Source of the DNA: Candidatus Thorarchaeota archaeon
Lineage (GTDB): Archaea; Asgardarchaeota; Thorarchaeia; Thorarchaeales; Thorarchaeaceae
Length of the DNA: 64,000 nucleotides
Reading direction: 5' to 3'
NCBI GenBank assembly: GCA_016840855.1
Contig: JAEORO010000056.1
Coordinates: forward strand, 74 to 64,073
Of this stretch, positions 4,239 through 56,226 are shown piece by piece. Numbering within the stretch: the stretch's first letter is position 1; every line of letters begins with the position of its first letter. Under the pieces are notes generated by a model that saw only the letters and a program-made list of their open reading frames with translations, had not been told where the DNA came from and did not search any database. The translations under genes were made by a program, and so were the position numbers.

Positions 4239-5546
4239 CTATAGTCTGATTACCTTCCCTTCTCTTCTACTTCTCTCGGCTGCAAAAGTCATCAGGTGGG
4301 TTTCCAGAGTTTCATCAGGACCCGAGAGAATCAGACTTGAATCATTCTGCGAAACTGCAGATACGAAAGTATCAATTAGAGCATAATCACCGCCACCATG
4401 TTCCACAAGTGAGTTGGGAATACGAGGCGCATCGGTGGTTGTATCAATTATCTCTGTTTTACCATTAAGAAACTGATGCAATTGGATCTTCTCACTGTTT
4501 GCGTATATCTCACCGTAACTTCCAAAGATACGCGTTTCTCTTTGTCTGGCTTTAGTGAACCCAGTCATTGTGAATGATGCCGTTTCACCACCCTCGAATT
4601 CCATATTCACTACCTGGTGATCCACAACGTCATTATCGCATTCGTATACACAACGACCATACGGTCCATTTCGGAGCTCCCTGATGATGCCACCTTTTGT
4701 CATTTCTGTCGTTATTACACTCAAAGGCCATCCGGTTTTCCTACGTTCAAGAAGTTTGAGATAGAATCTCTTTGCAGAATATGGACACTCTGGCTCATAG
4801 TTGCACTCCAAGCAGTTACTACCTGCGTTTTCAGGTTTGTTCTCACCACGAAAATGTGTGAGCGAACCAAAAGAAGACACAGACGTGCATCTCTTTCCAA
4901 TGATGTATCTTATCCAGTCAAGATCATGACAAGACTTGGTAAGCAACATGAATGATGACTCTTTCTCATTTCTCCAGTTTCCTCTCACATATGAATGCGC
5001 CTGATGCCAATATCCCACAGGTTCAAGATGCTGAATACTTATGATATCTCCAATTAATCCTGACTCAAGAATCGACTTCAGCTTCTGAGTATATCTTGTA
5101 TACCGAAGCACATGACCTACAGCAAAGATGATATCCCTTGAGAGAATTTCCTTTGTTATATCCTTGCAGCTCTTCTCATCTGGTGCCATTGGTTTCTCCA
5201 AGAGAATATGATAATCCTTTTTCGCAAATGCAATCGTTGGATCTCGATGCATGTGGTCCCGTGTTGTGATTATAGCTGCATCAGCAAACTTCTTCTTCTT
5301 TGCCATGTCCTTCCAGTCAGTGAAAACATTCTCTTCAGGGATGTTGTGTTCCTCTACCATTTTTTCCCGGTAATAATCTCTAGGCTCCGCAACGCCAACG
5401 ATTTTAGCTCTGTTTGGATGAGCTTTGGCATAGGATGCGTAAACAAACCCCCGATCTCCGGCACCCGCTATTATCATCTCAACTGGAGTCACTTTGATTT
5501 CCCACCCATAAGGTGTACTAAGTTTTGGATACATGCTCCATTTCAA
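4239..5546 (-). CDS. Gfo/Idh/MocA family oxidoreductase
   Basis: N-terminal Rossmann IIAGAGDRG and an EKPMA motif, with a long C-terminal alpha/beta domain. The true start may be an internal ATG. Confidence 0.7.
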   Translation of the reverse strand: MKWSMYPKLSTPYGWEIKVTPVEMIIAGAGDRGFVYASYAKAHPNRAKIVGVAEPRDYYREKMVEEHNIPEENVFTDWKDMAKKKKFADAAIITTRDHMHRDPTIAFAKKDYHILLEKPMAPDEKSCKDITKEILSRDIIFAVGHVLRYTRYTQKLKSILESGLIGDIISIQHLEPVGYWHQAHSYVRGNWRNEKESSFMLLTKSCHDLDWIRYIIGKRCTSVSSFGSLTHFRGENKPENAGSNCLECNYEPECPYSAKRFYLKLLERRKTGWPLSVITTEMTKGGIIRELRNGPYGRCVYECDNDVVDHQVVNMEFEGGETASFTMTGFTKARQRETRIFGSYGEIYANSEKIQLHQFLNGKTEIIDTTTDAPRIPNSLVEHGGGDYALIDTFVSAVSQNDSSLILSGPDETLETHLMTFAAERSRREGKVIRL

Positions 5547-5921
5547 TCTATACCTCTATTATCGACAGACAGGAAATCTCATTAATCAAGGAACATAAGA
5601 CTCCCTTGGTAGAGAGAGTTGGAGCAGAAAGATTCAGAACTCATTTCCAATGCCAGTTACGCGAAGCTAGTGTATTAATCCTGGTTATTTTTACGATATT
5701 CTCGGGATTTGGTGTTTCAACGACATATTCGCAACAGGGCATTCCATTAATCATCGCTCTTGGTCTATCGGCGATCGCAATATCCATTCTCCATTTTGGA
5801 AAAATACTGAAAAGATAAGATGGGTGAGATATTATTAAAATCATCAACTAGGTGTTTCCTACACTGGCGGAAAGCATAGAGTTCATAATCCGTCACTGAC
5901 ATTCACTGCATTGTGGACTAA

Positions 5922-6485
5922 ATGGGAGATTTCAAGGAAAGTCAAGAATTAGGTTCAGTTGACGAAACTTACCGAAAGAGATCTCAACTCATAATAATCT
6001 TGATGATACTGATTGCGTTCTTTGCACCAGCTGCCATGGCTGGAGAACATTATTTTTCTTCATTCTATCTCAATATCACTGCAATGACTTGGCAGGTAAA
6101 TGTAAGTCAATTTGGTCTTACTATTCAGTTCCTTGAACCGTATATGTTACTGACCATGAGCCCGTTTCTTCTCTTCCGCGCTGGATTTGTATATCAGATT
6201 TCGAAATATTATAGAGGAAAAACAACTAGGGGCAGAACAGCCATAGCCGCAGTACTTAGTGAGGCGCCTTTTTTTGTTCTTTTTTTCTTTTGGGCAATAT
6301 CCACTGCACTCTATAGTGGGTTCGGACTTAATTCCCCGCTACCAATAATGATGGTTGTAGGACTGTTGATATTATGGAGATTTCCTATGCCAACGGTGAA
6401 AGTCCCATGGGAGGGTGCTGAAGAACCTACTCCTTGGTGGGAAGAGGAGTCCAAAGAAGATACTAAACCTGCTGTTGATAAGTAA
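5922..6485 (+). CDS. polytopic membrane protein, hypothetical
   Basis: Several hydrophobic helices and an acidic C-terminal tail. No recognisable motif. Confidence 0.45.
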   Translation: MGDFKESQELGSVDETYRKRSQLIIILMILIAFFAPAAMAGEHYFSSFYLNITAMTWQVNVSQFGLTIQFLEPYMLLTMSPFLLFRAGFVYQISKYYRGKTTRGRTAIAAVLSEAPFFVLFFFWAISTALYSGFGLNSPLPIMMVVGLLILWRFPMPTVKVPWEGAEEPTPWWEEESKEDTKPAVDK

Positions 6486-6510
6486 ATCAGCTAAACGGAT
6501 TTGAAACATA

Positions 6511-6936
6511 TCAATCTGACAGTCGTCTGCTCGCGTCTTCATTAGCCTCTGCCAGCAACTCAAAGGCGTAAGCCGCTTCACTTAGGAAGTCGATCTTCAC
6601 AGCGGCTTGCGTATAGAAGGCTTGCAGACTTTTTTCTATCTCTCTCGCAATCTTTCTCAAAGTTTGGTCATCATGGGTTTCAGGTATTGCTGTCTTTGGT
6701 TGGAACGCATCAGAGTAAAGCCCAGAGATGGGTTCTAATATCATCTCAGTGACGTTCTCTCTCCTGATACGTTCTATTGTCTTGATTCTTTTTTGTCCTC
6801 TAGTAGCAAGACTACTAAAAGTGCTTGCTAAATCTTGGTCCTTTACTTTCTGTCTTGTAGACTCGTAAAAACTAGTCACCTCATTCTCAACTTCCAATGC
6901 AAATGTCATTATTGCTCCAAAGGTTCCAAGTTCCAT
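6511..6936 (-). CDS. hypothetical helical protein
   Basis: 141 aa, predicted all-helical, immediately downstream of the aldehyde dehydrogenase gene on the same strand. No metal-binding ExxH motifs seen. Confidence 0.4.
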   Translation of the reverse strand: MELGTFGAIMTFALEVENEVTSFYESTRQKVKDQDLASTFSSLATRGQKRIKTIERIRRENVTEMILEPISGLYSDAFQPKTAIPETHDDQTLRKIAREIEKSLQAFYTQAAVKIDFLSEAAYAFELLAEANEDASRRLSD

Positions 6937-6954
6937 TATTAATACACACTCCGA

Positions 6955-8418
6955 CTAGAACCAGCGAGTTATGACAACCTTATTTTCTGTAAAGAAATCG
7001 ACAGCATCTTGGCCCTGTCCATGAAGGTCTCCTAAAAAGGAGTCTTTCATTCCTGAAAAGGGAAAGGTCGCAATTGGTGCAGCAACTCCAATGTTGATGC
7101 CAATGTTTCCTGCCTTTACTCTGTATTGATACTCTCGAGCAACTGCTCCGCTTGATGTGAACACAGATGATGCATTGCCATATGGGTTTGCGTGAATAAT
7201 CTCTATTGCCTCATTGAGGTCCTTTACTCGCATTATTGGGATGACAGGCCCAAAGATCTCTTCTTTTGCTATTGTCATTTCAGGAGTTACTTTATCAAAA
7301 ACAGTTGGTCCAACGAAATATCCACTTTCGTATCCAGGGACATTGACTTCGCGTCCATCGAGAAGTAATTCTGCACCTTCTTCAAGTCCCTTCTCTATAT
7401 ATCCAAGGACTTTCTCCATTCCTTTCTTAGATGCCAATGGACCCATTTGGACTCCCTCTTCCAATCCATTTCCTACACTCACATTTTTGGCAGCTTCAAC
7501 AACAGCTTTCTTGAGTGGTTCATATATGTCACCAACAGCCAGAAGTACACCACCTGCTAGACAGCGTTGTCCAGCACATCCATAGAATGATGTGATTAGC
7601 GCAGGGATTGTCCGCTCAATATCCGCGTCAGGCATAACAGTAAGGAAGTTCTTCGCGCCACCTTGAACCTGGGCTCGTTTCCCGTTCTCGCCTGCTTTCT
7701 TGTAGAGAAGCTTGCCAATCGTAGATGAACCAACAAATGACATGCCTATTGTGTCAGGGCTCTCCAGAAGTGTATTAACAGCCTCTGGGCCACCATGAAC
7801 CATGTTCAGCACACCTCTTGGGAGTCCAAGTTCATGAATTATCTCAAACTGCCTTACTTGACTCATAGGCACCTGCTCTGATGGTTTTACAATGTACGTG
7901 TTTCCTGCTCCCACAGCAAATGGCCAGAACCAAGTGGGGACCATTCCTGGAAAGTTGAATGGTGCTACGCAGAAGAAGACTCCAATTGGCTGCTTAATGA
8001 CCATCTCATCTATTCCTGCTGCCACATCCTCAGTGTTGTACCCCATCTGAAGTGATGGGATGCTTGTTGCACATTCAAGATTCTCAATTGTGCGGCGGTA
8101 CTCGCCTCGAGCCTCATCAATGGTCTTTCCTTGCTCCATAGTGAGAATCTTCGAGAGCTCCTCAAAATTCTCCTCAAAAGCGTCTCTGATTCGGTTAAGA
8201 TGTCGGACTCTTGTGAAAACAGGAGTCGCTCGCCATCGATCAAAAGCCGCCTTTGCAGCTGCGATAGCCTGAAGGGTTTCCTCTTTAGTGCTCATGGGTG
8301 TCCTAGCAATTAACTCACCGGTAGCAGGGTTGAATACATCTCGCGTTTCTTTTGCCTTAGACTCAACCCATCGCCCATTTATGTAGTTCTTCACCGTTTC
8401 TACAGTCAAGATGGTCAC
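6955..8418 (-). CDS. mmsA: CoA-acylating methylmalonate/malonate-semialdehyde dehydrogenase
   Basis: ALDH fold with catalytic CAGQRC. The C-terminal FPFSGMKDSFLGDLHGQGQDAVDFFTENKVV is characteristic of the MMSDH subfamily. Confidence 0.8.
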   Translation of the reverse strand: MTILTVETVKNYINGRWVESKAKETRDVFNPATGELIARTPMSTKEETLQAIAAAKAAFDRWRATPVFTRVRHLNRIRDAFEENFEELSKILTMEQGKTIDEARGEYRRTIENLECATSIPSLQMGYNTEDVAAGIDEMVIKQPIGVFFCVAPFNFPGMVPTWFWPFAVGAGNTYIVKPSEQVPMSQVRQFEIIHELGLPRGVLNMVHGGPEAVNTLLESPDTIGMSFVGSSTIGKLLYKKAGENGKRAQVQGGAKNFLTVMPDADIERTIPALITSFYGCAGQRCLAGGVLLAVGDIYEPLKKAVVEAAKNVSVGNGLEEGVQMGPLASKKGMEKVLGYIEKGLEEGAELLLDGREVNVPGYESGYFVGPTVFDKVTPEMTIAKEEIFGPVIPIMRVKDLNEAIEIIHANPYGNASSVFTSSGAVAREYQYRVKAGNIGINIGVAAPIATFPFSGMKDSFLGDLHGQGQDAVDFFTENKVVITRWF

Positions 8419-43882: not shown

Positions 43883-45175
43883 CTATATGTATACAACCTC
43901 AACGAGATGTGCACTACAACTGATACACGGGTCATAGGCGCGAGCAATCATCTCAAATTGAAGTTCGATATTATCGCGCTTGCTCTTTGCGAGTAAATGT
44001 TCGCCCCCACAGCGTATGAAAGCCTCGATATCGTCAAGGAACATAGCTGTTGGAGTAATAAAGTCCGCCGCTTTGATTTTACCATCCTTGACTTCGTAAT
44101 GGTGGATTAATGTACCACGAGGTGCTTCCACCGCTCCAGTACCAATCCCTGTTTCCTGTGTTGGTTGTGCTATTGTTGCATTATCACTAATGAGAAGTTG
44201 ATTTACAGTTTCGATGATGCCCTCGAGAGAATATATTTGTTCAATTGCCTGCGCATGATTGTTGAATAGTGGATTACGGTACCATCGATCTGTGACTAAC
44301 TTGTCGTAAGCTTGTTTGGCCTTGCCCTTGAGTCGTTCGCCAAGAAGAAGAATGCGTGCAAGAGCACCGACTGTGAATGGTTTGTTATTATACTGGCTGC
44401 GTTTGGCGAAACTATGACTCACCACTCGCTCTTTGATAACCCTCTTGTAATTCTCAATAGGATGTTCCTCACCATCAGAGGTCACTAAAATATCGCCATA
44501 ATAACCATACTCATCACCTAGAGGTTTACAACATAGGAATTGGGTTTCTCGCTCCATATGGTCTGGGATTTTTAGACCTCCAAGAAGGTCAATAGTCGCT
44601 ACCGCAAAGTCTAGGAGCTTGATCGCCTCTTCTTTAATTTCTGTGAGGGTTTCTTTTGAAGGAAGCCTACTGAATCCTCCAATAATTGGATTTTCACCAT
44701 GAATCATCCGGCCTCCCATAATTCGCATTACCTTGTTTCCAAACTTCTTGAGCTGCAAAGCTTTTGTCACAGCATCACCATATTTGTCGGCCATTGCAAC
44801 AGCATTGTCATAACCCAGAAAGTCAGGTAATGCTAAGAAGTAGATATGCAGACTATGACTCTCAATCATCTCACCATGATGCATCAACTCTCTATACAAT
44901 AGGGTGGTTGGATCAATATTCACACCAATTGCTTTTTCCAAGCCCCTGAGTGCCGCATACTTATGAGAGAGATTACAGATGGCGCATATTCGAGGAACAA
45001 TGCTTAGATCTTCTTGCGGCGTTTTTCCTACAACTAATTCTTCGAAGAGGCGAGGTCCCTCTAGGATGCGAACTTCGACATTACTGATCTTGTTGTCTTT
45101 GATTTCTACTTTAATACCACCATGGCCTTCTACTCTGGCTAGGGGTTCAATGGAGATCTTCTTCTTGTTAGACAT
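43883..45175 (-). CDS. hydA: [NiFe] hydrogenase large (alpha) subunit, group 3b sulfhydrogenase type
   Basis: N-terminal RICAICNLSH and C-terminal DPCISCSAH Ni-Fe ligand motifs. About 430 aa. Last gene of a beta-gamma-delta-alpha operon. Confidence 0.85.
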   Translation of the reverse strand: MSNKKKISIEPLARVEGHGGIKVEIKDNKISNVEVRILEGPRLFEELVVGKTPQEDLSIVPRICAICNLSHKYAALRGLEKAIGVNIDPTTLLYRELMHHGEMIESHSLHIYFLALPDFLGYDNAVAMADKYGDAVTKALQLKKFGNKVMRIMGGRMIHGENPIIGGFSRLPSKETLTEIKEEAIKLLDFAVATIDLLGGLKIPDHMERETQFLCCKPLGDEYGYYGDILVTSDGEEHPIENYKRVIKERVVSHSFAKRSQYNNKPFTVGALARILLLGERLKGKAKQAYDKLVTDRWYRNPLFNNHAQAIEQIYSLEGIIETVNQLLISDNATIAQPTQETGIGTGAVEAPRGTLIHHYEVKDGKIKAADFITPTAMFLDDIEAFIRCGGEHLLAKSKRDNIELQFEMIARAYDPCISCSAHLVEVVYI

Positions 45176-45176
45176 T

Positions 45177-45953
45177 TCATTTACCTCCGTCTTCGATGAA
45201 TTTTATTATCTTGGAACCTCCGAATCCTCTGATTCGACGTACAATTTCCTCTTTGGTCATTCCAAAGCTCTCCAAAAGCTTGATGTGCTGACTGAAATTG
45301 CCATCTTCATTTGGACCCCAGCAACCCACACATGGAAGCCCATGATTAGGACAAGCTGATCCACATCCTCCCAGAGTGAGGGGTCCAATACAGAATTTAT
45401 CATCAAGAAGCAAGCATCGATTTTCATTAAGCTTGCACTCATGACATACTGGGTGTGGATAAGGTTCAGGAGCTGCTTCGTGGATTAATCTAGATATTAA
45501 TGCAAAAGTCTGAGGTTGACTTATTGGACACCCTGGAAGATAGTAGTCGACATCAACATATGCATCAATGGGTTTTGCTTCCAGAGGTTTAGATACGAAC
45601 TCAACACCTTCTCCATATACTTTCTTCAATCGTTTCTCGTACCCACCATCACCTGTGTACATAGCTTGAGGACCACCATTGACTGCACAGTTGCCAATCG
45701 CTACGAGTATCTTCGCTCGCTCTCTGATTTCATGGAGATGCTCTTTTTCTTCATCTGTGCTAATACTGCCCTCAACAAATGCGACGTCTAAGGCCTCCTC
45801 AATCGGATTGCTTGAAGCCATGACAAAAGATTGAATGGTTGTAGCTCCGAATAGATTGAGAATTTCATCTTCTGTGTGGATGATTAAGAGCTGGTCTCCT
45901 GCACAACCTGTAAATCCATAGATACCAATCCTTGGTTTGTCTGCTGCTGTCAT
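45177..45953 (-). CDS. hydD: [NiFe] hydrogenase small (delta) subunit
   Basis: GFTGCAGD at the N-terminus and multiple Cys clusters (GCGSACP, LPCVGCWGP). Confidence 0.8.
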   Translation of the reverse strand: MTAADKPRIGIYGFTGCAGDQLLIIHTEDEILNLFGATTIQSFVMASSNPIEEALDVAFVEGSISTDEEKEHLHEIRERAKILVAIGNCAVNGGPQAMYTGDGGYEKRLKKVYGEGVEFVSKPLEAKPIDAYVDVDYYLPGCPISQPQTFALISRLIHEAAPEPYPHPVCHECKLNENRCLLLDDKFCIGPLTLGGCGSACPNHGLPCVGCWGPNEDGNFSQHIKLLESFGMTKEEIVRRIRGFGGSKIIKFIEDGGK

Positions 45954-45954
45954 C

Positions 45955-46803
45955 TTAGATCAACTCCCTGAAATGCAGTGTATCCCAGTATGTGAATACT
46001 GGTCCATCCATACATGTATAGAGATGCTCAATAGCACAATGTCCGCACTTACCAATTCCACACTTCATTCGTCTCTCAAGGGAGAGCTGAATCTGATTCT
46101 TTGGTATCTTGAGTTTCAGAAACTCATCGATGACAAATTTGTACATGACTGGTGGGCCAACAACAACAGCATTGGTTTCCTTTGGGTCTATCTCTGGAAG
46201 ATTCTTGAAGAGTTTTGTCACAAGACCAACATTTTCAGTCCAATCTTTATCTGGCTTGTCGACCGTATAGAAACACTCAACGTCCTCGCGTTTTTTAATC
46301 TGGAAGAATTCAGTCTTAAACAGAAACTCATCGGGATTTTTGGATCCGTACAAGAAGAAGATACGGTTGAACATGTCACGATTATCTAGGGCATAGTAAA
46401 GAATGGACCGCAAAGGTATGACTCCCAAGCCACCCGCAACAATGATGAGATCTTTGTTAAACATCTGGTCCAATTTGAATCCGTTTCCATAAGGTCCGCG
46501 TATATAGATGACATCATTGTCACTTTTCTGGAACAGGGCTCTGGTTAGTTTTCCCACATTCCTAATACCAAACTCAAGGATGCCTGGACGGCTAGGAGTA
46601 GATGAAATAGAAAATGGAGCTTCCCCGATACCCGGGATTGACATCATTATAAACTGACCAGGGCTATAGGTAAATGACATAGCTTTTTTCATGTCAATAT
46701 GTCTAACCTGAAAGAATCTATGACCTTTAATCAGATCGTAATGCCTTACGATTCTAGCAGCTTTTGGTTTGAATGGGTTCTCAATTGTTTCAATCAAATT
46801 CAT
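45955..46803 (-). CDS. hydG: sulfhydrogenase gamma subunit (FAD/NAD(P)-binding, 2Fe-2S; AsrB-like)
   Basis: Ferredoxin-reductase-type fold with C-terminal CGIGKCGHC. Start set at MNLIETIE, giving an ATGA overlap with the upstream stop. Confidence 0.8.
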   Translation of the reverse strand: MNLIETIENPFKPKAARIVRHYDLIKGHRFFQVRHIDMKKAMSFTYSPGQFIMMSIPGIGEAPFSISSTPSRPGILEFGIRNVGKLTRALFQKSDNDVIYIRGPYGNGFKLDQMFNKDLIIVAGGLGVIPLRSILYYALDNRDMFNRIFFLYGSKNPDEFLFKTEFFQIKKREDVECFYTVDKPDKDWTENVGLVTKLFKNLPEIDPKETNAVVVGPPVMYKFVIDEFLKLKIPKNQIQLSLERRMKCGIGKCGHCAIEHLYTCMDGPVFTYWDTLHFRELI

Positions 46804-47849
46804 TGCTTTGGCACCTCCTTTGTTGTCAAAGCTTCTGAAACAGTTAATACATTGATATCCACTGGGCACGAGTCCACGCATCGGCCACAGCCAATACATC
46901 CAGGGCGTCCATAATCAACACCGAAAGTCTTCAGTTTGTGACCGTACCATAACCTTAGACGTTCTGCACGCGAAGCACGGAAATTATGTCCTCCCGCAAC
47001 AAGGCTGTAATCCACAAACATGCAACTATCCCATCTCCTATCGCGACGCCCAGTGGTTTCATTTGTCACATCAAAAACATCTACAACATTGTAGCAATTG
47101 CATGTGGGACAAACCATAGAACACTGACCACATGAGAGACATTTCTCGCCAAAGTTCTCCCAAACTTCACTATCGTGGCTTAGTTCCATTATATCTGGCA
47201 TACTATCGAACTCGAAGCTCTTCTTGAACATCTTATTCCGTTTCTGACGCCACTCCACATACATCTGGATGTCTTCATGTGTTACATTATCATCGAAGAA
47301 CTCCTCTCTCTCATATATCATGTCATACCCAAGACTTGACCCTACCCAAACTAGATAGAAATCTCCTAAATCCACGAAGAACAGATCAAACCCCTCTTCC
47401 ACTATATCAGTATCAGTAGAGTGACAGAGGTGATTCTCTAACGGTAGACATGAAAATCCTATAATGGCTGTGTTCTTTCTAAGACCAGTGTAATATGGGT
47501 CTGCGGGTTCTCTCATGAAAACATCATCTAGCCTGAGAAGACTATGTATCTCACAAGGATGAACTCCCAGCACCACTCTCTTCTCAATTACAGAATAGTC
47601 TGGATTGAAACCTGTCCCATCAAAATGCATCATAGTGAACTGCATTGGATGAAAGAGTTTCTTGATCGGAATCATGGGGTGCTTGTCTGTTATGATCAAT
47701 TCTGAAATATTCTCGAGACGATCATAGGACAGCACACCATTCTTCTGTTTGGGTCCATATAGGCTACCAAACTTGTCCAGACTCTCGAGAAAAACCTCGA
47801 GAAACTTCGACTGCATTTTCAATATGCGCATTTGCGGCACCCTGTCCAT
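46800..47849 (-). CDS. hydB: sulfhydrogenase beta subunit (4Fe-4S; AsrA-like)
   Basis: CLSCGQCSMVCPTCNC and CIGCGRCVDSCP clusters. First gene of the operon. Confidence 0.75.
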   Translation of the reverse strand: MDRVPQMRILKMQSKFLEVFLESLDKFGSLYGPKQKNGVLSYDRLENISELIITDKHPMIPIKKLFHPMQFTMMHFDGTGFNPDYSVIEKRVVLGVHPCEIHSLLRLDDVFMREPADPYYTGLRKNTAIIGFSCLPLENHLCHSTDTDIVEEGFDLFFVDLGDFYLVWVGSSLGYDMIYEREEFFDDNVTHEDIQMYVEWRQKRNKMFKKSFEFDSMPDIMELSHDSEVWENFGEKCLSCGQCSMVCPTCNCYNVVDVFDVTNETTGRRDRRWDSCMFVDYSLVAGGHNFRASRAERLRLWYGHKLKTFGVDYGRPGCIGCGRCVDSCPVDINVLTVSEALTTKEVPKQ

Positions 47850-48171: not shown

Positions 48172-48504
48172 ATGTCAGATAATAAGAAATCAACTAGCCT
48201 TGATAGCGTACAATTAAGTCTTAGAGAACAACTTCTTGGTCGATTGTCAGATGACGACCTCAGTTCCAAGAAAAGAGAAGTTTCAGTCATGACCAGGATG
48301 AGTGGTGATATCGTCGAAATCCTTGATGCATTAGTAGAGCTTGAAATTTTTAAGAGCCGATCCGAGGCTGTTTCTGCATTCGTTGAACAAGCTATATCCG
48401 CACGTATCGAACTTTTTGAAGAGATTAAGACTCAAGCCACTGATATTCGGAAACTGCGTGACTCTGCCAAGAGACATGCATTTGAAGCATTTCAAGAAAA
48501 ATAA
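48172..48504 (+). CDS. ribbon-helix-helix (CopG/Arc/MetJ-like) DNA-binding protein
   Basis: REVSVMTRMSGDIVEILDALVELEIFKSRSEAVSAFVEQAI fits a beta-strand plus two-helix RHH pattern. Confidence 0.6.
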   Translation: MSDNKKSTSLDSVQLSLREQLLGRLSDDDLSSKKREVSVMTRMSGDIVEILDALVELEIFKSRSEAVSAFVEQAISARIELFEEIKTQATDIRKLRDSAKRHAFEAFQEK

Positions 48505-48604: not shown

Positions 48605-49093
48605 TCAATGTATCGCATATGCTACATTTTTGAAGTCAATGTGTGCGACAGCATCTTTGTAATCTAGACTTCTCACGGTACCGGGGTCAAGACGGAAGTC
48701 AATGTGTGCGACAGCATCTTTGTAATCTGGGCTTCTCACAGTACCGGGATCAAGACGGAAGTCGATCATTGCAACAGCATCTTTGTAATCTGGGCTTCTC
48801 ACAGTACCGGGGTCAAGACGGAAGTCGATCCTTGCCACAGTTTCCCTGTAGTCAACTCGTGCAACCGTATCTCTGTGATTGATTATTCGGACTTCGCCAG
48901 GATCAAGCCGCCAAGCTATAACGAAAGCAGTCTGCGCGGTGTTCCCCTCATTGAAGTAACTATCTGATGTTACGTCCATTGTATTGTTCATACTCATCCA
49001 AGCAACTGCAATCATCGATCCAAAAGCAGCCAGTGATAAGACGAACAAGACTCCACAAGCAAATACAACCCTATGGGCTTTTTGGTTAAACAT
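48605..49093 (-). CDS. N-terminally membrane-anchored protein made of 21-aa tandem repeats
   Basis: One N-terminal TM helix, then ~5 repeats of the form RLDPGTVRSPDYKDAVAHIDF. Three are nearly identical and two are degenerate. Confidence 0.6.
   Translation of the reverse strand: MFNQKAHRVVFACGVLFVLSLAAFGSMIAVAWMSMNNTMDVTSDSYFNEGNTAQTAFVIAWRLDPGEVRIINHRDTVARVDYRETVARIDFRLDPGTVRSPDYKDAVAMIDFRLDPGTVRSPDYKDAVAHIDFRLDPGTVRSLDYKDAVAHIDFKNVAYAIH
48632..48883. repeat. 63-bp tandem repeat: three near-identical units plus at least one degenerate unit (coding)
   Basis: Units start at 48632, 48695, 48758 and 48821, each beginning GAAGTC(A/G)AT. The period is exactly 63 nt. Confidence 0.9.
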
Positions 49094-49397: not shown

Positions 49398-51203
49398 TTA
49401 ATTAGAAAGCCTGCGTAGTTTGACAAGGTCATCAGTCAACTCAGAATATCCAATACTCTGAGCTTTTTTATCCCAGTAGATACAGATTGTTCTTTGTCTT
49501 TTGTCGAGTTGTTTCAAATCAAAGTCAAGTCCTATGATTTTTCTCATGAGATGCAATGGGTGATACCATACTTCAATGAATTCCGAGTAATCCGGTTTGT
49601 TTCTCACGACCTCAACATTCGCCAACTCTGCTTTGACAATCGATTCGTATTGAAGCTTTGAATCATCATCCTCGAACAGCTTGATGATAATCTTTTGAAT
49701 TGACTTCATAGTTTCTCTGTAATCCATTTTTGGCCAACTTGCCTGAGGGAGTTCAATCTCGTCGATACTCTCAATCAAAGTTCTTGGTATTTCGTTACCG
49801 AGTATAGAATATGCGAATTGCATACTTGATTTTGAAAAATCATTAACAGCTTGTCCCAAGAAAACTTGTTTCAATATGCTTTGCCGCGGAAGAGTTTGGT
49901 TATTGATATAATAGTAGGTAGGAAAAATCTGTGGATGATTCTTGATCATGTCACGAAGCTCTCTCCAATGAATAGGAGGAAAGTCTGAATGACCTGGTCC
50001 ACCATAGTTATCGTAAACTAGGTTGTTCTTCATTTTATTGAAAAGCTTTGACCCAGGTTCCGGTACTAGTGAATGAATCTGTGTCTTGACCCTTAGCAGA
50101 TGGATTGATTTTATTCTAAAAATATAATCCCAAAGTGCAATTAGGTCATCATCTGTTTCCTCAGGGAATCCAATAATGAAAGACAGTATTAATGTATAAC
50201 CAAGTTCAACTGCGGCTTTTACGGTTTCATCGAGTTTTGTTAGGTCGAGTCGTTTGTTGATTATCTCTTGCATTCTCTCTGTTACAGTTTCTATTCCAAG
50301 GTAAATCCTGTCGCATCCAGCTTCTTTCATTCTACTCAGTATTTCATTATCCAATGAGTCTAATCGTGCACTACAACCCCATTTGATTGGAGTGCCTAGC
50401 TCCGGCAAGGCATCGCATAGTGAAATAATGTATTTCCTGTTGAACGTCAACAGGTCATGATTCATTTTTATTCTTCTTTTATCTCCAAATTTCTCTTTGA
50501 CCAGCTTGATTTCAGAAAGAATACGGTCTACTGATTTCACTCTAAATTTTCTCTTGAAGTAACTTGATGTGGAACAAAAAGTACAAGCAAATGGACATCC
50601 TCTCCCCATCTCAATTGACACCGACTCTTCAAAATCAACATCCTCACTACAAATCCTGTAGTCAGGAATAGGAAGACTATCCAAGTCATCAATTGGATCT
50701 GACCATCCATTATCACGAATCTGATTACCCTCTCTGCAAACAACTCCCTTGATTTGGCTTATCGATTCATTGCTCTGAATCTGTACAATCAGCTTGGGAA
50801 ATGATACATCAGCTTCGCCACGTATAATGATATCAATCTGCTTGAAGGACTTCAAAATCTCCCTAGCACTGAAAGAAGCTCCAGGTCCTCCGAGGATTGT
50901 AACGACATCAGGCTGCAACTCCTTTATTCTACGGCATATCTCCAACGCGACTACAATATTGTTGGACATTGTTGATAGACCCACAATCTTTGGATTTGTG
51001 GATATGATTGCATCAGTCATTTTATCCAAGGCATCATTGTAATCCTGATTTTCTCCAACATTTAGATTTGATAGATCTAACACTTCGACATCTATTGACT
51101 TTAGACCAAGTGCAGATGATAATGCAAGAATGCCTAGACATCTGAAAAGCGGAATTTTAGTTTCCATTGACAATTGGTGTATAGCAATCAATGTTACTTT
51201 CAA
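49398..51203 (-). CDS. B12-binding-domain (class B) radical SAM enzyme with an ~200-aa C-terminal extension
   Basis: N-terminal cobalamin-binding-like region (IVGLSTMSNN...ILGGPGAS). Radical SAM cluster motif CPFACTFC. No Cys-rich SPASM-like tail. Apparent TTG start (MKVTLIA). Confidence 0.85.
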   Translation of the reverse strand: MKVTLIAIHQLSMETKIPLFRCLGILALSSALGLKSIDVEVLDLSNLNVGENQDYNDALDKMTDAIISTNPKIVGLSTMSNNIVVALEICRRIKELQPDVVTILGGPGASFSAREILKSFKQIDIIIRGEADVSFPKLIVQIQSNESISQIKGVVCREGNQIRDNGWSDPIDDLDSLPIPDYRICSEDVDFEESVSIEMGRGCPFACTFCSTSSYFKRKFRVKSVDRILSEIKLVKEKFGDKRRIKMNHDLLTFNRKYIISLCDALPELGTPIKWGCSARLDSLDNEILSRMKEAGCDRIYLGIETVTERMQEIINKRLDLTKLDETVKAAVELGYTLILSFIIGFPEETDDDLIALWDYIFRIKSIHLLRVKTQIHSLVPEPGSKLFNKMKNNLVYDNYGGPGHSDFPPIHWRELRDMIKNHPQIFPTYYYINNQTLPRQSILKQVFLGQAVNDFSKSSMQFAYSILGNEIPRTLIESIDEIELPQASWPKMDYRETMKSIQKIIIKLFEDDDSKLQYESIVKAELANVEVVRNKPDYSEFIEVWYHPLHLMRKIIGLDFDLKQLDKRQRTICIYWDKKAQSIGYSELTDDLVKLRRLSN

Positions 51204-51291
51204 CGAAATCGACTCACTTCCTGTCTGTTTACACTCAAAATAAATGCAAACAGTGATGTCCTAATTGTTTCCATTGTAACTCAAATGATTA

Positions 51292-51543
51292 TCAATCGGT
51301 TATGAAGAACTGAGATGATGAGTAAGGTAAAAGTTCTGCATCCAAACTGTCCTGGCTGTCTATTATTGCTTGATAATTTAAACCCAGAAAATATTGTTGT
51401 TCTTCAGGAGTAAGATCAAGCCACGCGTCAACATAGAATTCATCATCTATTGCAGCAGCAGGTCCTTTGTCTCTCATTGACTCTAGGAAGGAGCGATCCT
51501 TCAACATCCTTGCTATAATTTTATCCGCATCTATTCTCACCAT
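51292..51543 (-). CDS. 83-aa peptide, candidate RiPP precursor B (NHLP/Nif11-like leader)
   Basis: KIIARMLKDRSFLESMRDKGPAAAI resembles the NHLP leader consensus by eye. It is a paralog of the upstream small ORF, with AAGGAG upstream. Confidence 0.5.
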   Translation of the reverse strand: MVRIDADKIIARMLKDRSFLESMRDKGPAAAIDDEFYVDAWLDLTPEEQQYFLGLNYQAIIDSQDSLDAELLPYSSSQFFITD

Positions 51544-51563
51544 AATATCAACTCAACTCCTTT

Positions 51564-51815
51564 CTATATCCAAGCTGGTGGCTTTCGTGGTTTTTCTTCA
51601 GACTCAATCAAGTCCTTCAAATCTTTGAATTTGATCTTCACATCGGTCTTTCCTATGTTTTTGAGAAAATTCAGTTCATCAGCAGTCATAAATTTGGCAT
51701 CGTACCCGATTGTACCTTTTGCATTTTTTATCAAGTCTGCATAGAACATATCGTCTTTCAACAATCTTCTCATGATTTTTTTAAAGGTTGGAGTCATTCT
51801 TGGGAACGATAGCAT
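51564..51815 (-). CDS. 83-aa peptide, candidate RiPP precursor A (NHLP/Nif11-like leader)
   Basis: KIMRRLLKDDMFYADLIKNAKGT...TADELNFL aligns with precursor B. Start set at the ATG preceded by GAGGGG; the ORF-track start at 51821 is a GTG. Confidence 0.5.
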   Translation of the reverse strand: MLSFPRMTPTFKKIMRRLLKDDMFYADLIKNAKGTIGYDAKFMTADELNFLKNIGKTDVKIKFKDLKDLIESEEKPRKPPAWI

Positions 51816-51903
51816 AAGCACCCCTCATTTTGCCATTCGAAACTAGCATTTTCCATTGTATAGCTTCAATATATGTTGTTTTAATGAGTACATAAGCTCA
51901 AAA

Positions 51904-53469
51904 ATGGATTCGAAAGACTCATCTCTAGGGTATGTCTTTAGCTTACGTTACACGCCACCCATGAGGGGTGCAAACTTGCAGCCATTGGGAACAATCACAA
52001 TGTGTCATAAGTTCATCAATAGTGAAGATAAGGACATCATTGATGAAATTGCATCTTCGTCAGAAACTTATCATGAATTTGTAATTTGTCTTGGAGAGCA
52101 TGTCTGCGTTAATGATATTTCATCTGAATTGGCTCACATCGCAATTATTCATGCATGGGAGCTCAGAGAAACTAAGGTGATTGACAAAATCGCAAGTCAA
52201 TATGGCGAAGAACCCTTTGTGAAACCCTGGACCTATCCTATTCGGACTCGTAGTGATAGGCTATCATGCTCGCATCATATCCAAGATGCTGTGGAACTAG
52301 CAATGTATGATAATCCATCAGATTGGATAAAGATGAATCTCCTATTACTCAAATCATATGCTCTATTGCACACTCCTCAAGGACCTGCTGCGTTGGATGA
52401 GGCTAAGGCATTACTAGCAACATCTTCAGACCTCTCATGCTATAGTCCGTATATCCATCATATTGAATGTCGTTTAATTTACGAGCAGGAAGGGAATCTA
52501 CCTGAAGTAATAAGAATCTGCCAAGAAGGTCTTGAATTAGCTTTAAAGTATGACAACCTCTACCAAGCAGTCTGGTTGTATCGATGGCTTGGTATGTTCA
52601 CTATGAATACAAATCCACATCTAGCCTCACAACATCTTGAAGAAGCATATAATATCGCTAATCAATTAGGAACTCCATTTCACACCGCCCAAGCACTTAC
52701 TGAAATGGGTTGGGTTTCGGTCATACTGGGAGAGTACGACCTTGCAATAGCATTCTATGATGAAGCCCGAACACTCTCAACATCTTTAGATGAGGTCAGT
52801 GATCGTCACGCAGTGACCCTCTCGCATATCTGCTCCGACCTAAACGACGCTCAACAAGCACTTGATTGGGCGCAGTGGGCTCTTGAATGGCATATGAATC
52901 AGGGGTCAGAAGGTGATACTTGGACTCACTCAGCAATGGCACGAGCCCTTACATTGCTTGGTCGATTAGATGAAGCTGCACTACACCTTGACACATCGAG
53001 AGAAATGGCGTTCAGAAGTGGCCAAGAGCGGGAAATTGCCTTCTTCTATCTTGTATCAGGTCTTCATGAAATATTTTCAGGGCAACCCGCAAGCGCGATC
53101 GAAACTCTCAGAAGCGCTTTGGAAATTTGCGAACGTACGAAAACTCAAGAATACATGAATAGAGTATTGCTAGCTCTGGTACGTGGAGAGATTGAATTAT
53201 TCAAACAAAGTGGTGGCGATGAAACCAGCGATACATCTGGCCAATGGATGACATACCTAGAAGACATCGCACGCTCCAAAAAACTTCCGGGAATTCTTAT
53301 TCAACATGCACTTTTAAAAGCCGAATTCCTATTGGCACAAGGAAAAACCAGTGAATCTCGAAAAACTCTGATTGTTGCTCTCGATATACACGATTCACCT
53401 GGAGTTAGATCATTACAAAAGCAAGTATTAACAAAAATCAGAGAGATTGATACAGGAGCAAACACCTAG
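51904..53469 (+). CDS. TPR-repeat protein
   Basis: The C-terminal ~350 aa form repeated helix-pair units (e.g. EEAYNIANQLG..., LAIAFYDEARTL..., ALDWAQWALEW...). Divergent from the peptide/rSAM operon. No HTH seen. Confidence 0.6.
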   Translation: MDSKDSSLGYVFSLRYTPPMRGANLQPLGTITMCHKFINSEDKDIIDEIASSSETYHEFVICLGEHVCVNDISSELAHIAIIHAWELRETKVIDKIASQYGEEPFVKPWTYPIRTRSDRLSCSHHIQDAVELAMYDNPSDWIKMNLLLLKSYALLHTPQGPAALDEAKALLATSSDLSCYSPYIHHIECRLIYEQEGNLPEVIRICQEGLELALKYDNLYQAVWLYRWLGMFTMNTNPHLASQHLEEAYNIANQLGTPFHTAQALTEMGWVSVILGEYDLAIAFYDEARTLSTSLDEVSDRHAVTLSHICSDLNDAQQALDWAQWALEWHMNQGSEGDTWTHSAMARALTLLGRLDEAALHLDTSREMAFRSGQEREIAFFYLVSGLHEIFSGQPASAIETLRSALEICERTKTQEYMNRVLLALVRGEIELFKQSGGDETSDTSGQWMTYLEDIARSKKLPGILIQHALLKAEFLLAQGKTSESRKTLIVALDIHDSPGVRSLQKQVLTKIREIDTGANT

Positions 53470-55512: not shown

Positions 55513-56226
55513 ATGAACGATTTCTATTCGAGGCTCGCGAGATACTATGACCAGATGTATGCGCATATTGACTATAGAGGAGCTGCTGACCGGCTTCATG
55601 AAATCATTCAGAAGCACAAGCAGTCTTTAGGAAATAAATTGCTAGATGTTGCTTGTGGAACTGGAACTCACATAATGTACCTCAAAGATAGGTATCAAGC
55701 AATGGGCTTTGATATCAGCGAAGAAATGCTAGCAATCGCACGAAACAAGTGTCCTAGTATCACCTTTATGCAAGGTAATATGATTTCCATGGAACTCAAT
55801 CAGACCTTCGATGTGATAACTTGTCTATTTGGATCGATTACGTATCTTACAACGGAAGACGAGCTTCGACTTGCACTCCAAAGTTTTTCGAAACATATTG
55901 CTACTGGTGGAGTTGTTATAATCGAACCACTATTCACAGAAGAAACATATCGTGAAAAGGGAATGGGGCTTAATTGCCTAAACCTACCTGATATCAAAAT
56001 TGCTCGGAGTAATGTCAGTCGAAGAGAAGGAAATATTGTTTATCTCGATTTTCACTTTCTAATATCAACGCGAGAACATGGTACGGCGCACTTTATCGAT
56101 CCAAGTCCCATGGGCGTATTCTCCTTGGATACCTTCAAGAACTTCATGGAAGAGAATGGTTTCTTAGTCAAGATAATTGAACCGGGTTTCGACAAGGAAT
56201 TTCTAATCTTGGGCATAAAAGAATAG
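55513..56226 (+). CDS. class I SAM-dependent methyltransferase
   Basis: Motif I LLDVACGTGTH, with GFDISEEML and GGVVIIE downstream. Confidence 0.8.
   Translation: MNDFYSRLARYYDQMYAHIDYRGAADRLHEIIQKHKQSLGNKLLDVACGTGTHIMYLKDRYQAMGFDISEEMLAIARNKCPSITFMQGNMISMELNQTFDVITCLFGSITYLTTEDELRLALQSFSKHIATGGVVIIEPLFTEETYREKGMGLNCLNLPDIKIARSNVSRREGNIVYLDFHFLISTREHGTAHFIDPSPMGVFSLDTFKNFMEENGFLVKIIEPGFDKEFLILGIKE

Follow-up and report, generated by a model that had tools for sequence, protein, structure and literature searches.

In this study, we examine a 64,000-nucleotide stretch of contig JAEORO010000056.1 from a Candidatus Thorarchaeota archaeon (hereafter the window) and focus on a compact module within it, in which two genes for small precursor-like peptides, pepA and pepB, are found directly upstream of, and co-oriented with, the gene for a radical S-adenosylmethionine (SAM) protein, designated rSAM (Table 1; aa, amino acids). 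An earlier note, made from the sequence alone, had read this arrangement as a candidate cluster for a peptide made on the ribosome and then modified post-translationally (RiPP), and its description of two open reading frames (ORFs) of ~83 aa followed by a 601-aa enzyme agrees with the coordinates of the ORF map. The three genes occupy one strand, with intergenic gaps of 20 bp between pepA and pepB and 88 bp between pepB and rSAM. The window opens with the 3′ end of an archaeal 23S rRNA (positions 1-423), and among the closest homologues those that carry names belong to Candidatus Thorarchaeota, which together confirm the archaeal (Asgard) origin of the window. Asgard archaea are the closest prokaryotic relatives of eukaryotes.

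Table 1. Positions of the module, its parts and the adjoining divergent gene in the window
Feature	Position	Strand	Basis and remarks
rSAM, 601-aa ORF containing GRGCPFACTFCS	49398..51203	-	ORF map; class B (cobalamin-dependent) radical SAM, ApyD-like
B12-binding Rossmann-like domain of rSAM, residues 23-138	50790..51137	-	PF02310, 2.8e-16, 59.9 bits (cut-off 32.1)
Radical SAM core of rSAM, residues 197-357	50133..50615	-	PF04055, 1.2e-24, 87.8 bits (cut-off 29.5)
CxxxCxxC motif of rSAM, C203/C207/C210	50574-50597	-	within the Radical SAM core
Clade-specific C-terminal domain of rSAM, residues 396-601	49401..50018	-	helices, then an alpha-beta-alpha-alpha-beta-beta unit (AlphaFold model)
pepB, 83 aa, B-type precursor-like peptide ending in PYSSSQFFITD	51292..51543	-	ORF map
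Predicted pepB core, residues ~66-83, SLDAELLPYSSSQFFITD	51295..51348	-	boundary predicted; archaeal peptide alignment
pepA, 83 aa, A-type precursor-like peptide ending in KPRKPPAWI	51564..51815	-	ORF map and start evidence
Predicted pepA core, residues ~68-83, DLIESEEKPRKPPAWI	51567..51614	-	boundary predicted from the end of the leader in hhalign
Tetratricopeptide repeat (TPR; MalT-like) protein, 537 aa as ORF	51856..53469	+	divergent; TPR_12 8e-15, TPR_MalT 1.7e-9

Both small ORFs are real genes under purifying selection, since they are gene-called in public records, are kept in related contigs, and show ratios of non-synonymous to synonymous substitution (dN/dS) of 0.34 (pepB) and 0.44 (pepA) against their orthologues in the related locus L001, with 0.10 for rSAM. 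Although pepA can also be read as an 85-aa ORF initiated at GTG (51564..51821, minus strand), the ATG at 51815, which gives 83 aa, is favoured by the public gene call P0124 (83 aa), by the orthologues P0128 and P0131, and by a GAGG Shine-Dalgarno-like box 7-8 nt upstream. An oligo-T tract, TTTATTTT, is located at ~51240-51250 on the minus strand, in the gap that precedes the rSAM start and ~50 nt past the stop codon of pepB; it could represent a partial archaeal terminator that would leave the precursor transcript in excess of the enzyme transcript.

By its domains and predicted fold, rSAM is a class B (cobalamin-dependent) radical SAM enzyme. The N-terminal cobalamin-binding-like domain and the cysteine cluster described in the earlier note were confirmed by profile searches (Table 1), and none of C203, C207, and C210 varies among 33 full-length homologues. 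An AlphaFold (AF2) model computed from an alignment of 33 sequences reached a predicted local distance difference test score (pLDDT) of 91.2 and, in Foldseek searches, matched solved class B enzymes with E values of about 1e-19 to 1e-22, led by CysS (6.7e-22), TokK (1.6e-21), and MgmA (7.2e-21) and followed by OxsB, AprD4, and TsrM. TokK and CysS align with the model over nearly its entire length, which means that class B enzymes normally have a large C-terminal domain and that its presence is no oddity per se; the ~200-aa C-terminal extension to which the earlier note had drawn attention is unassigned in Pfam, where nothing was found past about residue 465, but its mere length does not set the enzyme apart. 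In sequence, this domain is confined to one small, rare enzyme clade: a profile of residues 396-601 retrieved 34 representatives (E ≤ 1e-3) among 1.84 billion clusters at 50 % identity, nearly all of which carry the domain at the end of ~600-aa proteins, the remainder being shorter fragments. A profile of the domain returned nothing meaningful among PDB sequences or in Pfam. In the full-length model, the alpha-beta-alpha-alpha-beta-beta unit spans residues 513-588, and a single-sequence AlphaFold prediction of the isolated domain (pLDDT 44.8) was too poor for a fold search.

Among NCBIfam models, the best match to rSAM by far was NF050148 (ApyD; 5e-98, 329.2 bits, residues 21-465), followed by TIGR03975 (RiPP C-methyltransferase; 141 bits), BchE (131 bits), and HpnJ (122 bits), and more weakly by further cofactor, lipid, and methyl-coenzyme M reductase (MCR) methylases, the HpnR and BzaD models included. 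All of these scores fall below the curated cut-offs, including those of NF050148 (750 bits) and TIGR03975 (281.85 bits), and rSAM therefore belongs to none of the named equivalogs. The proteusin-type enzyme analogy of the earlier note has to be revised, rSAM being nearer to ApyD (329 bits) than to the PoyB/C-type model TIGR03975 (141 bits). Placement in a lipid or cofactor clade, which the same note had named as speaking against a peptide-modifying role, was not found, as ApyD stands well ahead of BchE, HpnJ, HpnR, and the MCR methylases; a role as a lipid or cofactor methylase was rejected on this basis.

The two peptides share the N-terminal pattern KI(I/M)xR(M/L)LKDxxF reported previously, and neither contains Cys, as had been reported for the cores. 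The later shared element is present as well, as TADELNFL in pepA and TPEEQQYFL in pepB, although its spacing is off by one residue. Of the relevant curated models, both peptides match only NF038399 (‘Os1348 family NHLP clan protein’, where NHLP denotes the nitrile hydratase-like leader peptide) over the same N-terminal region with 16.9 (pepA) and 17.0 (pepB) bits, and neither matched the NHLP leader model TIGR03793 (cut-off 50.9 bits) at E ≤ 1. NF038399 is matched by 8 of 11 peptides encoded beside orthologous enzymes, including bacterial peptides above its cut-off (L048, 75.6 bits; L004, 43.4 bits; L007, 40.7 bits), and other models found among these 11 are TIGR03793 (two peptides, weakly), TIGR04509 (one), and Pfam Frankia_peptide (three). 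A hidden Markov model (HMM) built from the peptides of other loci, with the A- and B-type peptides left out, recognized pepB (E 4.1e-7) and pepA (E 2.2e-5) through their N-terminal 25-40 residues. Furthermore, an hhalign comparison of 12 archaeal with 5 bacterial peptides gave a probability of 91.7 % (E 7.8e-7, 56 columns), the aligned region corresponding to residues 7-67 of pepA, so that the leader homology stops near residue 67. Judged by this remote homology, the archaeal peptides carry a leader domain homologous to that of bacterial NHLP-clan precursors. The leaders of the Frankia_peptide, Nif11, NHase_alpha, and ComX families are united by the ECOD curators in a single ‘LigA-like’ group of three-helix domains (PMC12353581). 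The NHLP/Nif11-like leader proposed in the earlier note is thus supported through homology of profiles to the bacterial set, whereas the direct NF038399 score of 17 bits lies below the cut-off of 40; similarly, the two peptides can be called paralogous only at the level of profiles (leave-out HMM and hhalign), because BLASTP gave no alignment between them.

The association between peptide and enzyme was assessed in every obtainable locus whose enzyme shares the C-terminal domain, which amounted to 18 distinct loci including the window; a metagenome scan with an eight-sequence alignment of this domain, which gave five loci, was among the sources. A leader-motif ORF of 77-139 aa is located upstream of the enzyme on the same strand in 18/18 of these loci, which come from archaea and bacteria and have unrelated flanks. 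Among the Thorarchaeota-type loci, L001/L002 (rSAM 79 % identical to that of the window) have two upstream peptides of 84 and 83 aa, and one upstream peptide is found in each of L090 (73 %), L008 (57 %), L093 (51 %), L091 (47 %), L003 (46 %; peptide of 107 aa), L006 (45 %), L005 and L095 (44 % each), and L096 (40 %). The bacterial loci range from a simple peptide-rSAM pair (L092) to richer arrangements, in which the peptide is followed by a 363-aa rSAM and the B12-dependent rSAM (B12-rSAM; L004, Lernaella), by three tandem B12-rSAMs (L007), by an S53 (L009) or S8 (L097) peptidase and the rSAM, or by a C1 peptidase, two B12-rSAMs, and an O-methyltransferase (L098), or is preceded by a SPASM-type rSAM and followed by the B12-rSAM (L048, Anaerolineae). 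These additional genes, namely the SPASM-type rSAM, the S53, S8, and C1 peptidases, the tandem B12-rSAMs of L007 and L098, and the O-methyltransferase, are unmistakable RiPP parts. As a control, 80 distant B12-rSAM loci were taken from among the matches listed for a genome-contig scan with the full-length enzyme alignment (22-37 % identity, with no match to the C-terminal domain); when 5,737 small ORFs were searched with the peptide HMM, the one significant match in these loci was L048, itself a member of the clade. The link between the peptide and the enzyme clade is therefore specific and spans two domains of life, and the conserved co-occurrence that had been set beforehand as a test of the RiPP proposal was observed. 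In general terms, a precursor gene adjoins a tailoring enzyme gene and the linkage extends across lineages, as is generically required of a RiPP cluster.

This linkage also bears on the possibility that rSAM acts on a lipid, a cofactor, or tRNA and that the small ORFs are unrelated neighbours or regulators. Many archaeal B12-rSAMs do serve lipids and cofactors, rSAM has weaker matches to the BchE, HpnJ, HpnR, and BzaD models, and the window peptides fall under the curated family cut-offs. However, the score for ApyD, a RiPP enzyme, is more than twice that for any non-RiPP family, the pair is kept in all 18 loci of two domains with unrelated flanks, and the peptides of the bacterial loci are genuine precursors of the NHLP clan; we regard a non-peptide substrate as highly improbable. 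A separate observation concerns L010 (Methanosarcina sp. UBA5), where a 696-aa B12-rSAM (4911-7001; 33 % identity, matching residues 23-566 of the window rSAM) is preceded by a 147-aa ORF (4264-4707) with about four repeats of EETRVQTPKAIN....IQIPRTIE, which could serve a different archaeal system as a multi-core precursor.

In the window lineage, no part of the peptides is better conserved than the C-termini. The terminal P-x-W-I is kept in all four A-type orthologues (PPAWI, PQWI, PNWI), and the B-type orthologues P0121, P0123, and P0129 retain the ending PYSSSxFFITD. The hydrophobic-T-D motif present in the pepB core recurs in the archaeal family, other archaeal peptides ending in HFVTDH, SSITDW, or YYFTDW, and many bacterial peptides end in Trp (GLDPQW, GIEPSW, DAGTW, FVQCW). 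These endings suggest, as the likely target, a short C-terminal stretch of aromatic or hydrophobic residues that in many cases has Asp after it or Trp inside it, reminiscent of the GYLYD substrate of ApyD. In the window lineage, the B-type and A-type motifs sit on separate peptides. Since the sole peptide of L090 and of L008 is B-like, the B type appears to be the ancestral form and the A type to have been added within a particular lineage. In L003 (4634-4957) and L091 (2439-2774), single peptides of 102-107 aa unite a B-type EFLTD(H/W) and an A-type-like PHWVPPG in one chain.

We consider it likely that the locus is a RiPP-type module in which a class B rSAM would C-methylate a short C-terminal core under the guidance of a leader. 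Its parts differ in strength: pepA and pepB are very probably the substrates of rSAM, and for methylation as the chemistry the chances appear about even. What the analysis establishes is gene content, homology, conserved linkage, and fold; the peptide as substrate, the methylation, its target site, and the removal of the leader are all deductions. In the proposed scheme, the precursor would be of two parts, a helical N-terminal leader, ~60 residues long and of the NHLP/Nif11/Frankia_peptide (‘LigA-like’) kind, and a short C-terminal core that ends in PPAWI in pepA and FFITD in pepB. The leader would probably be held by the C-terminal domain specific to the clade, by the TPR protein, or by both, and would thereby dock the precursor on the enzyme. 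A [4Fe-4S] cluster at C203/C207/C210 would then reductively cleave SAM to give a 5′-deoxyadenosyl radical, which would take a hydrogen atom from an unactivated carbon of a core side chain, and methylcobalamin on the N-terminal domain would deliver a methyl group to the resulting substrate radical. The expected product would carry at least one C-methylated residue near the peptide C-terminus, and by analogy with ApyD the methylation site would most likely be the Cβ of an aromatic or branched residue.

Several observations weigh against this scheme. On the peptide side, pepA and pepB lie far under the NF038399 cut-off (17 versus 40 bits) and do not align with each other in BLASTP, no Gly-Gly site is found in either, and orthologous peptides are conserved over their full length rather than hypervariable in the core. 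On the enzyme side, no PqqD-like RiPP recognition element (RRE) was demonstrable in the C-terminal domain by Pfam and PDB sequence searches, the domain-only model being of low confidence (pLDDT 44.8), and the score of 329 bits against an ApyD equivalog cut-off of 750 means that the chemistry may differ; class B enzymes are also known to cyclise, to contract rings, and to form C-S or C-P bonds (PMC10635010). In the surroundings, domain searches of the neighbours detected no peptidase or transporter within about 5 kb of the window module. The enzymatic points raise the question of whether the peptides are modified by a chemistry other than methylation, such as a radical cross-link or cyclisation at a C-terminal Trp or other aromatic residue, or another B12-dependent rearrangement. 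The distance from the ApyD cut-off, the unique C-terminal domain, the diversity of class B reactions (PMC10635010), and the Trp found at or next to the C-terminus of many family members (endings W, WI, and KWG) fit such a chemistry, but the nearest characterised families and the top structures (ApyD, TIGR03975, TokK, CysS, MgmA) are all methyltransferases and B-type cores such as FFITD lack Trp, so that we consider it unlikely.

The divergent TPR gene was not mentioned among the parts listed in the earlier note, though it is the most consistent archaeal partner of the module. Wherever the sequence of an archaeal locus extends far enough, a TPR (MalT-like) gene lies beside the peptide and enzyme genes: orthologues with 25-75 % identity to that of the window adjoin the pair in L001, L003, L005, L006, L008, L090, and L091, and TPR genes are present also in L095 and L096. 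In L005, L006, and L008, the outer flanks consist of other genes, yet the trio of TPR protein, peptide, and enzyme stays together, which speaks for a link in function and not just for synteny. The TPR ORF as read starts only 40 bp from the pepA ATG. An alternative start at M36 (51961), near the start of the L006 orthologue, leaves a 145-bp AT-rich divergent region (51816-51960), and M36 is possibly the true start, which would provide a divergent promoter region. PADLOC returned generic B12-rSAM and TPR matches only and made no defence-system assignment.

The constancy of the TPR gene and the absence of any protease or exporter from the archaeal loci examined both speak for a variant of the enzyme-substrate pairing in which the peptide is not cleaved and exported. 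The ~80-aa proteins might be modified intact and act inside the cell, or a tiny C-terminal fragment might be released, as with the precursors of pyrroloquinoline quinone or mycofactocin, for intracellular use, in which the TPR protein might take part. The full-length conservation of the peptides, whose extreme C-terminal motifs (PYSSSxFFITD and PxWI) are best kept, is in line with this variant as well. On the other hand, bacterial relatives have S8, S53, or C1 peptidases beside the peptide, which points to proteolytic maturation in the family, and an archaeal protease could lie elsewhere in the genome; this variant, in either form, seems to us rather improbable. By analogy with known signalling peptides, the module might also serve peptide signalling instead of forming an antibiotic pathway: a C-terminal peptide modified by the B12-rSAM, often with Trp at or beside its end and made with a ComX/NHLP-like leader, would in Thorarchaeota be sensed by the TPR protein that invariably adjoins the module, a reading to which we assign only a small chance. 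In 5 of 7 bacterial loci (L007, L009, L092, L097, L098), a divergent gene for a ~1,750-aa Pkinase-AAA_16-GAF-SpoIIE protein lies beside the peptide, and the idea, just as speculative, that this giant Pkinase-AAA_16-(TPR)-GAF-SpoIIE protein would be the bacterial sensor belongs to the same reading. If true, it would place a modified-peptide pheromone with a TPR receptor, comparable to RRNPP or ComX systems, in Asgard archaea.

The flanks of the peptide/enzyme module, the TPR protein included, are more conserved in archaea than the module itself. The TPR protein is 75 % (L091) and 59 % (L003) identical to that of the window and a flanking 110-aa protein 80-84 %, while rSAM is only 46-47 % identical in those two loci; flank proteins being more conserved than rSAM and the peptides, the peptide/enzyme module diverges faster than its flanks, and the cassette appears either to evolve faster than they do or to be exchanged between them. 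A class I methyltransferase (55513-56226), 3.7 kb away, is part of the conserved archaeal flank. Other neighbours include a 110-aa protein (48172-48504, plus strand) that is 78-84 % identical across Thorarchaeota loci and a [NiFe]-hydrogenase-like four-gene operon (43883-47849; Fer4_22, FAD/NAD, small, and large subunits) located downstream of the module and syntenic with L001. Between these and the module, 305 bp downstream of rSAM on the same strand, lies the gene for a 162-aa protein (48605-49093). The protein has a membrane anchor at its N-terminus, and a 63-bp unit, present in 3.1 tandem copies, encodes its 21-aa repeats DFRLDPGTVRSPDYKDAVAHI. The L001 orthologue of this protein has ~14 copies of the 11-aa RLDPGETVSID(F/Y) instead, and only the membrane anchor is conserved in L003, L090, and L091.

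The system looks like an uncharacterised, rare ribosomal-peptide modification module with relatives in a few bacteria. To our knowledge, no archaeal radical-SAM RiPP has been characterised, and our search of the literature on Asgard or Thorarchaeota RiPPs, on NHLP together with cobalamin, and on Franean1_4349 found no description of this system. No member of the rare enzyme clade (34 clusters at 50 % identity) has been studied so far. A 2025 survey of archaeal RiPP potential covers YcaO-related, sacti-/ranthipeptide, lanthipeptide, and lasso classes, with haloarchaeal lanthipeptides as the only characterised archaeal RiPPs, and a search of its text for the terms NHLP, proteusin, and cobalamin gave no match (PMC12144867). 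With a clear candidate substrate, a conserved TPR partner, and a set of two peptides and one enzyme, the module is experimentally tractable; it could bring to light a B12-dependent peptide modification that is new in site or in type, and could offer a first way into the peptides that Asgard archaea make as natural products or signals.

Among known systems, the solved class B methylases TokK (7kdy), CysS (9n1c), MgmA (9ccb), and TsrM (6wte) share the three-domain fold of rSAM (Foldseek E about 1e-21, TM-score, a template modelling measure, of 0.5-0.7), but they are only 12-17 % identical to it, and most of them use small-molecule or carrier-bound substrates, MgmA acting on a protein (MCR). The best family match is ApyD of the aminopyruvatide pathway of Burkholderia thailandensis. 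This cobalamin-dependent enzyme converts the penultimate Tyr of ApyA, within its C-terminal GYLYD, into (2S,3R)-β-methyltyrosine (PMC10635010). As proposed here for the window, a B12-binding rSAM is paired with a ribosomal peptide in that pathway, and the target aromatic residue lies at the very C-terminus (GYLYD), just as pepB closes with aromatic residues and then Asp (FFITD). In contrast, rSAM scores 329 against 750 bits and its C-terminal ~140 residues have no alignment to ApyD, the window precursors have an NHLP-clan leader that ApyA does not have, and the multinuclear non-haem iron-dependent oxidative enzyme (MNIO; ApyHI), the P450 (ApyO), and the methyltransferase ApyS of aminopyruvatide are not among the neighbours of the window module, which is archaeal and has a TPR partner. 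Membership in the aminopyruvatide family was rejected in view of the score below the NF050148 cut-off and of neighbours without MNIO/RRE, P450, or ApyS domains.

Proteusins of the polytheonamide type combine an NHLP-leader precursor (PoyA), B12-rSAM C-methyltransferases (PoyB/C), and an epimerase (PoyD). The likeness lies in a long helical NHLP-clan leader and class B rSAMs that would C-methylate unactivated carbons. Unlike proteusin clusters, the window has no TIGR03793 match, reaches 141 against 281.85 bits with TIGR03975, has no Gly-Gly motif and no rSAM epimerase (no second rSAM is found at the locus, hence no PoyD-like enzyme), and has very short predicted cores of about 16-18 aa. Scores under the TIGR03793 and TIGR03975 cut-offs and the lack of an epimerase at the window locus led us to reject proteusin membership. 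Classical NHLP/Nif11 systems are marked by leader cleavage at a Gly-Gly motif and by linkage to an ABC transporter that contains a C39 peptidase domain (Haft 2010, PMC2887384), and this assignment was likewise rejected, with no Gly-Gly in the peptides and no transporter or peptidase within about 5 kb. In its workings, the system resembles the proteusin and ApyD-type C-methylating pathways, yet falls outside the definition of each. The closest parallels are found in the bacterial clusters with NF038399 precursors (for example L048, L004, and L007), whose orthologous enzymes are 34-41 % identical to rSAM over the full length, including the rare C-terminal domain, and whose peptides occupy the same position and have a homologous leader (hhalign 91.7 %). 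The bacterial loci differ in having peptidases, extra rSAMs, and the Pkinase-AAA_16-GAF-SpoIIE gene, whereas the archaeal loci have the TPR gene and no protease was found in them, and the archaeal peptides are too diverged to reach the model cut-off. These uncharacterised bacterial clusters with NF038399 precursors are the true relatives of the locus.

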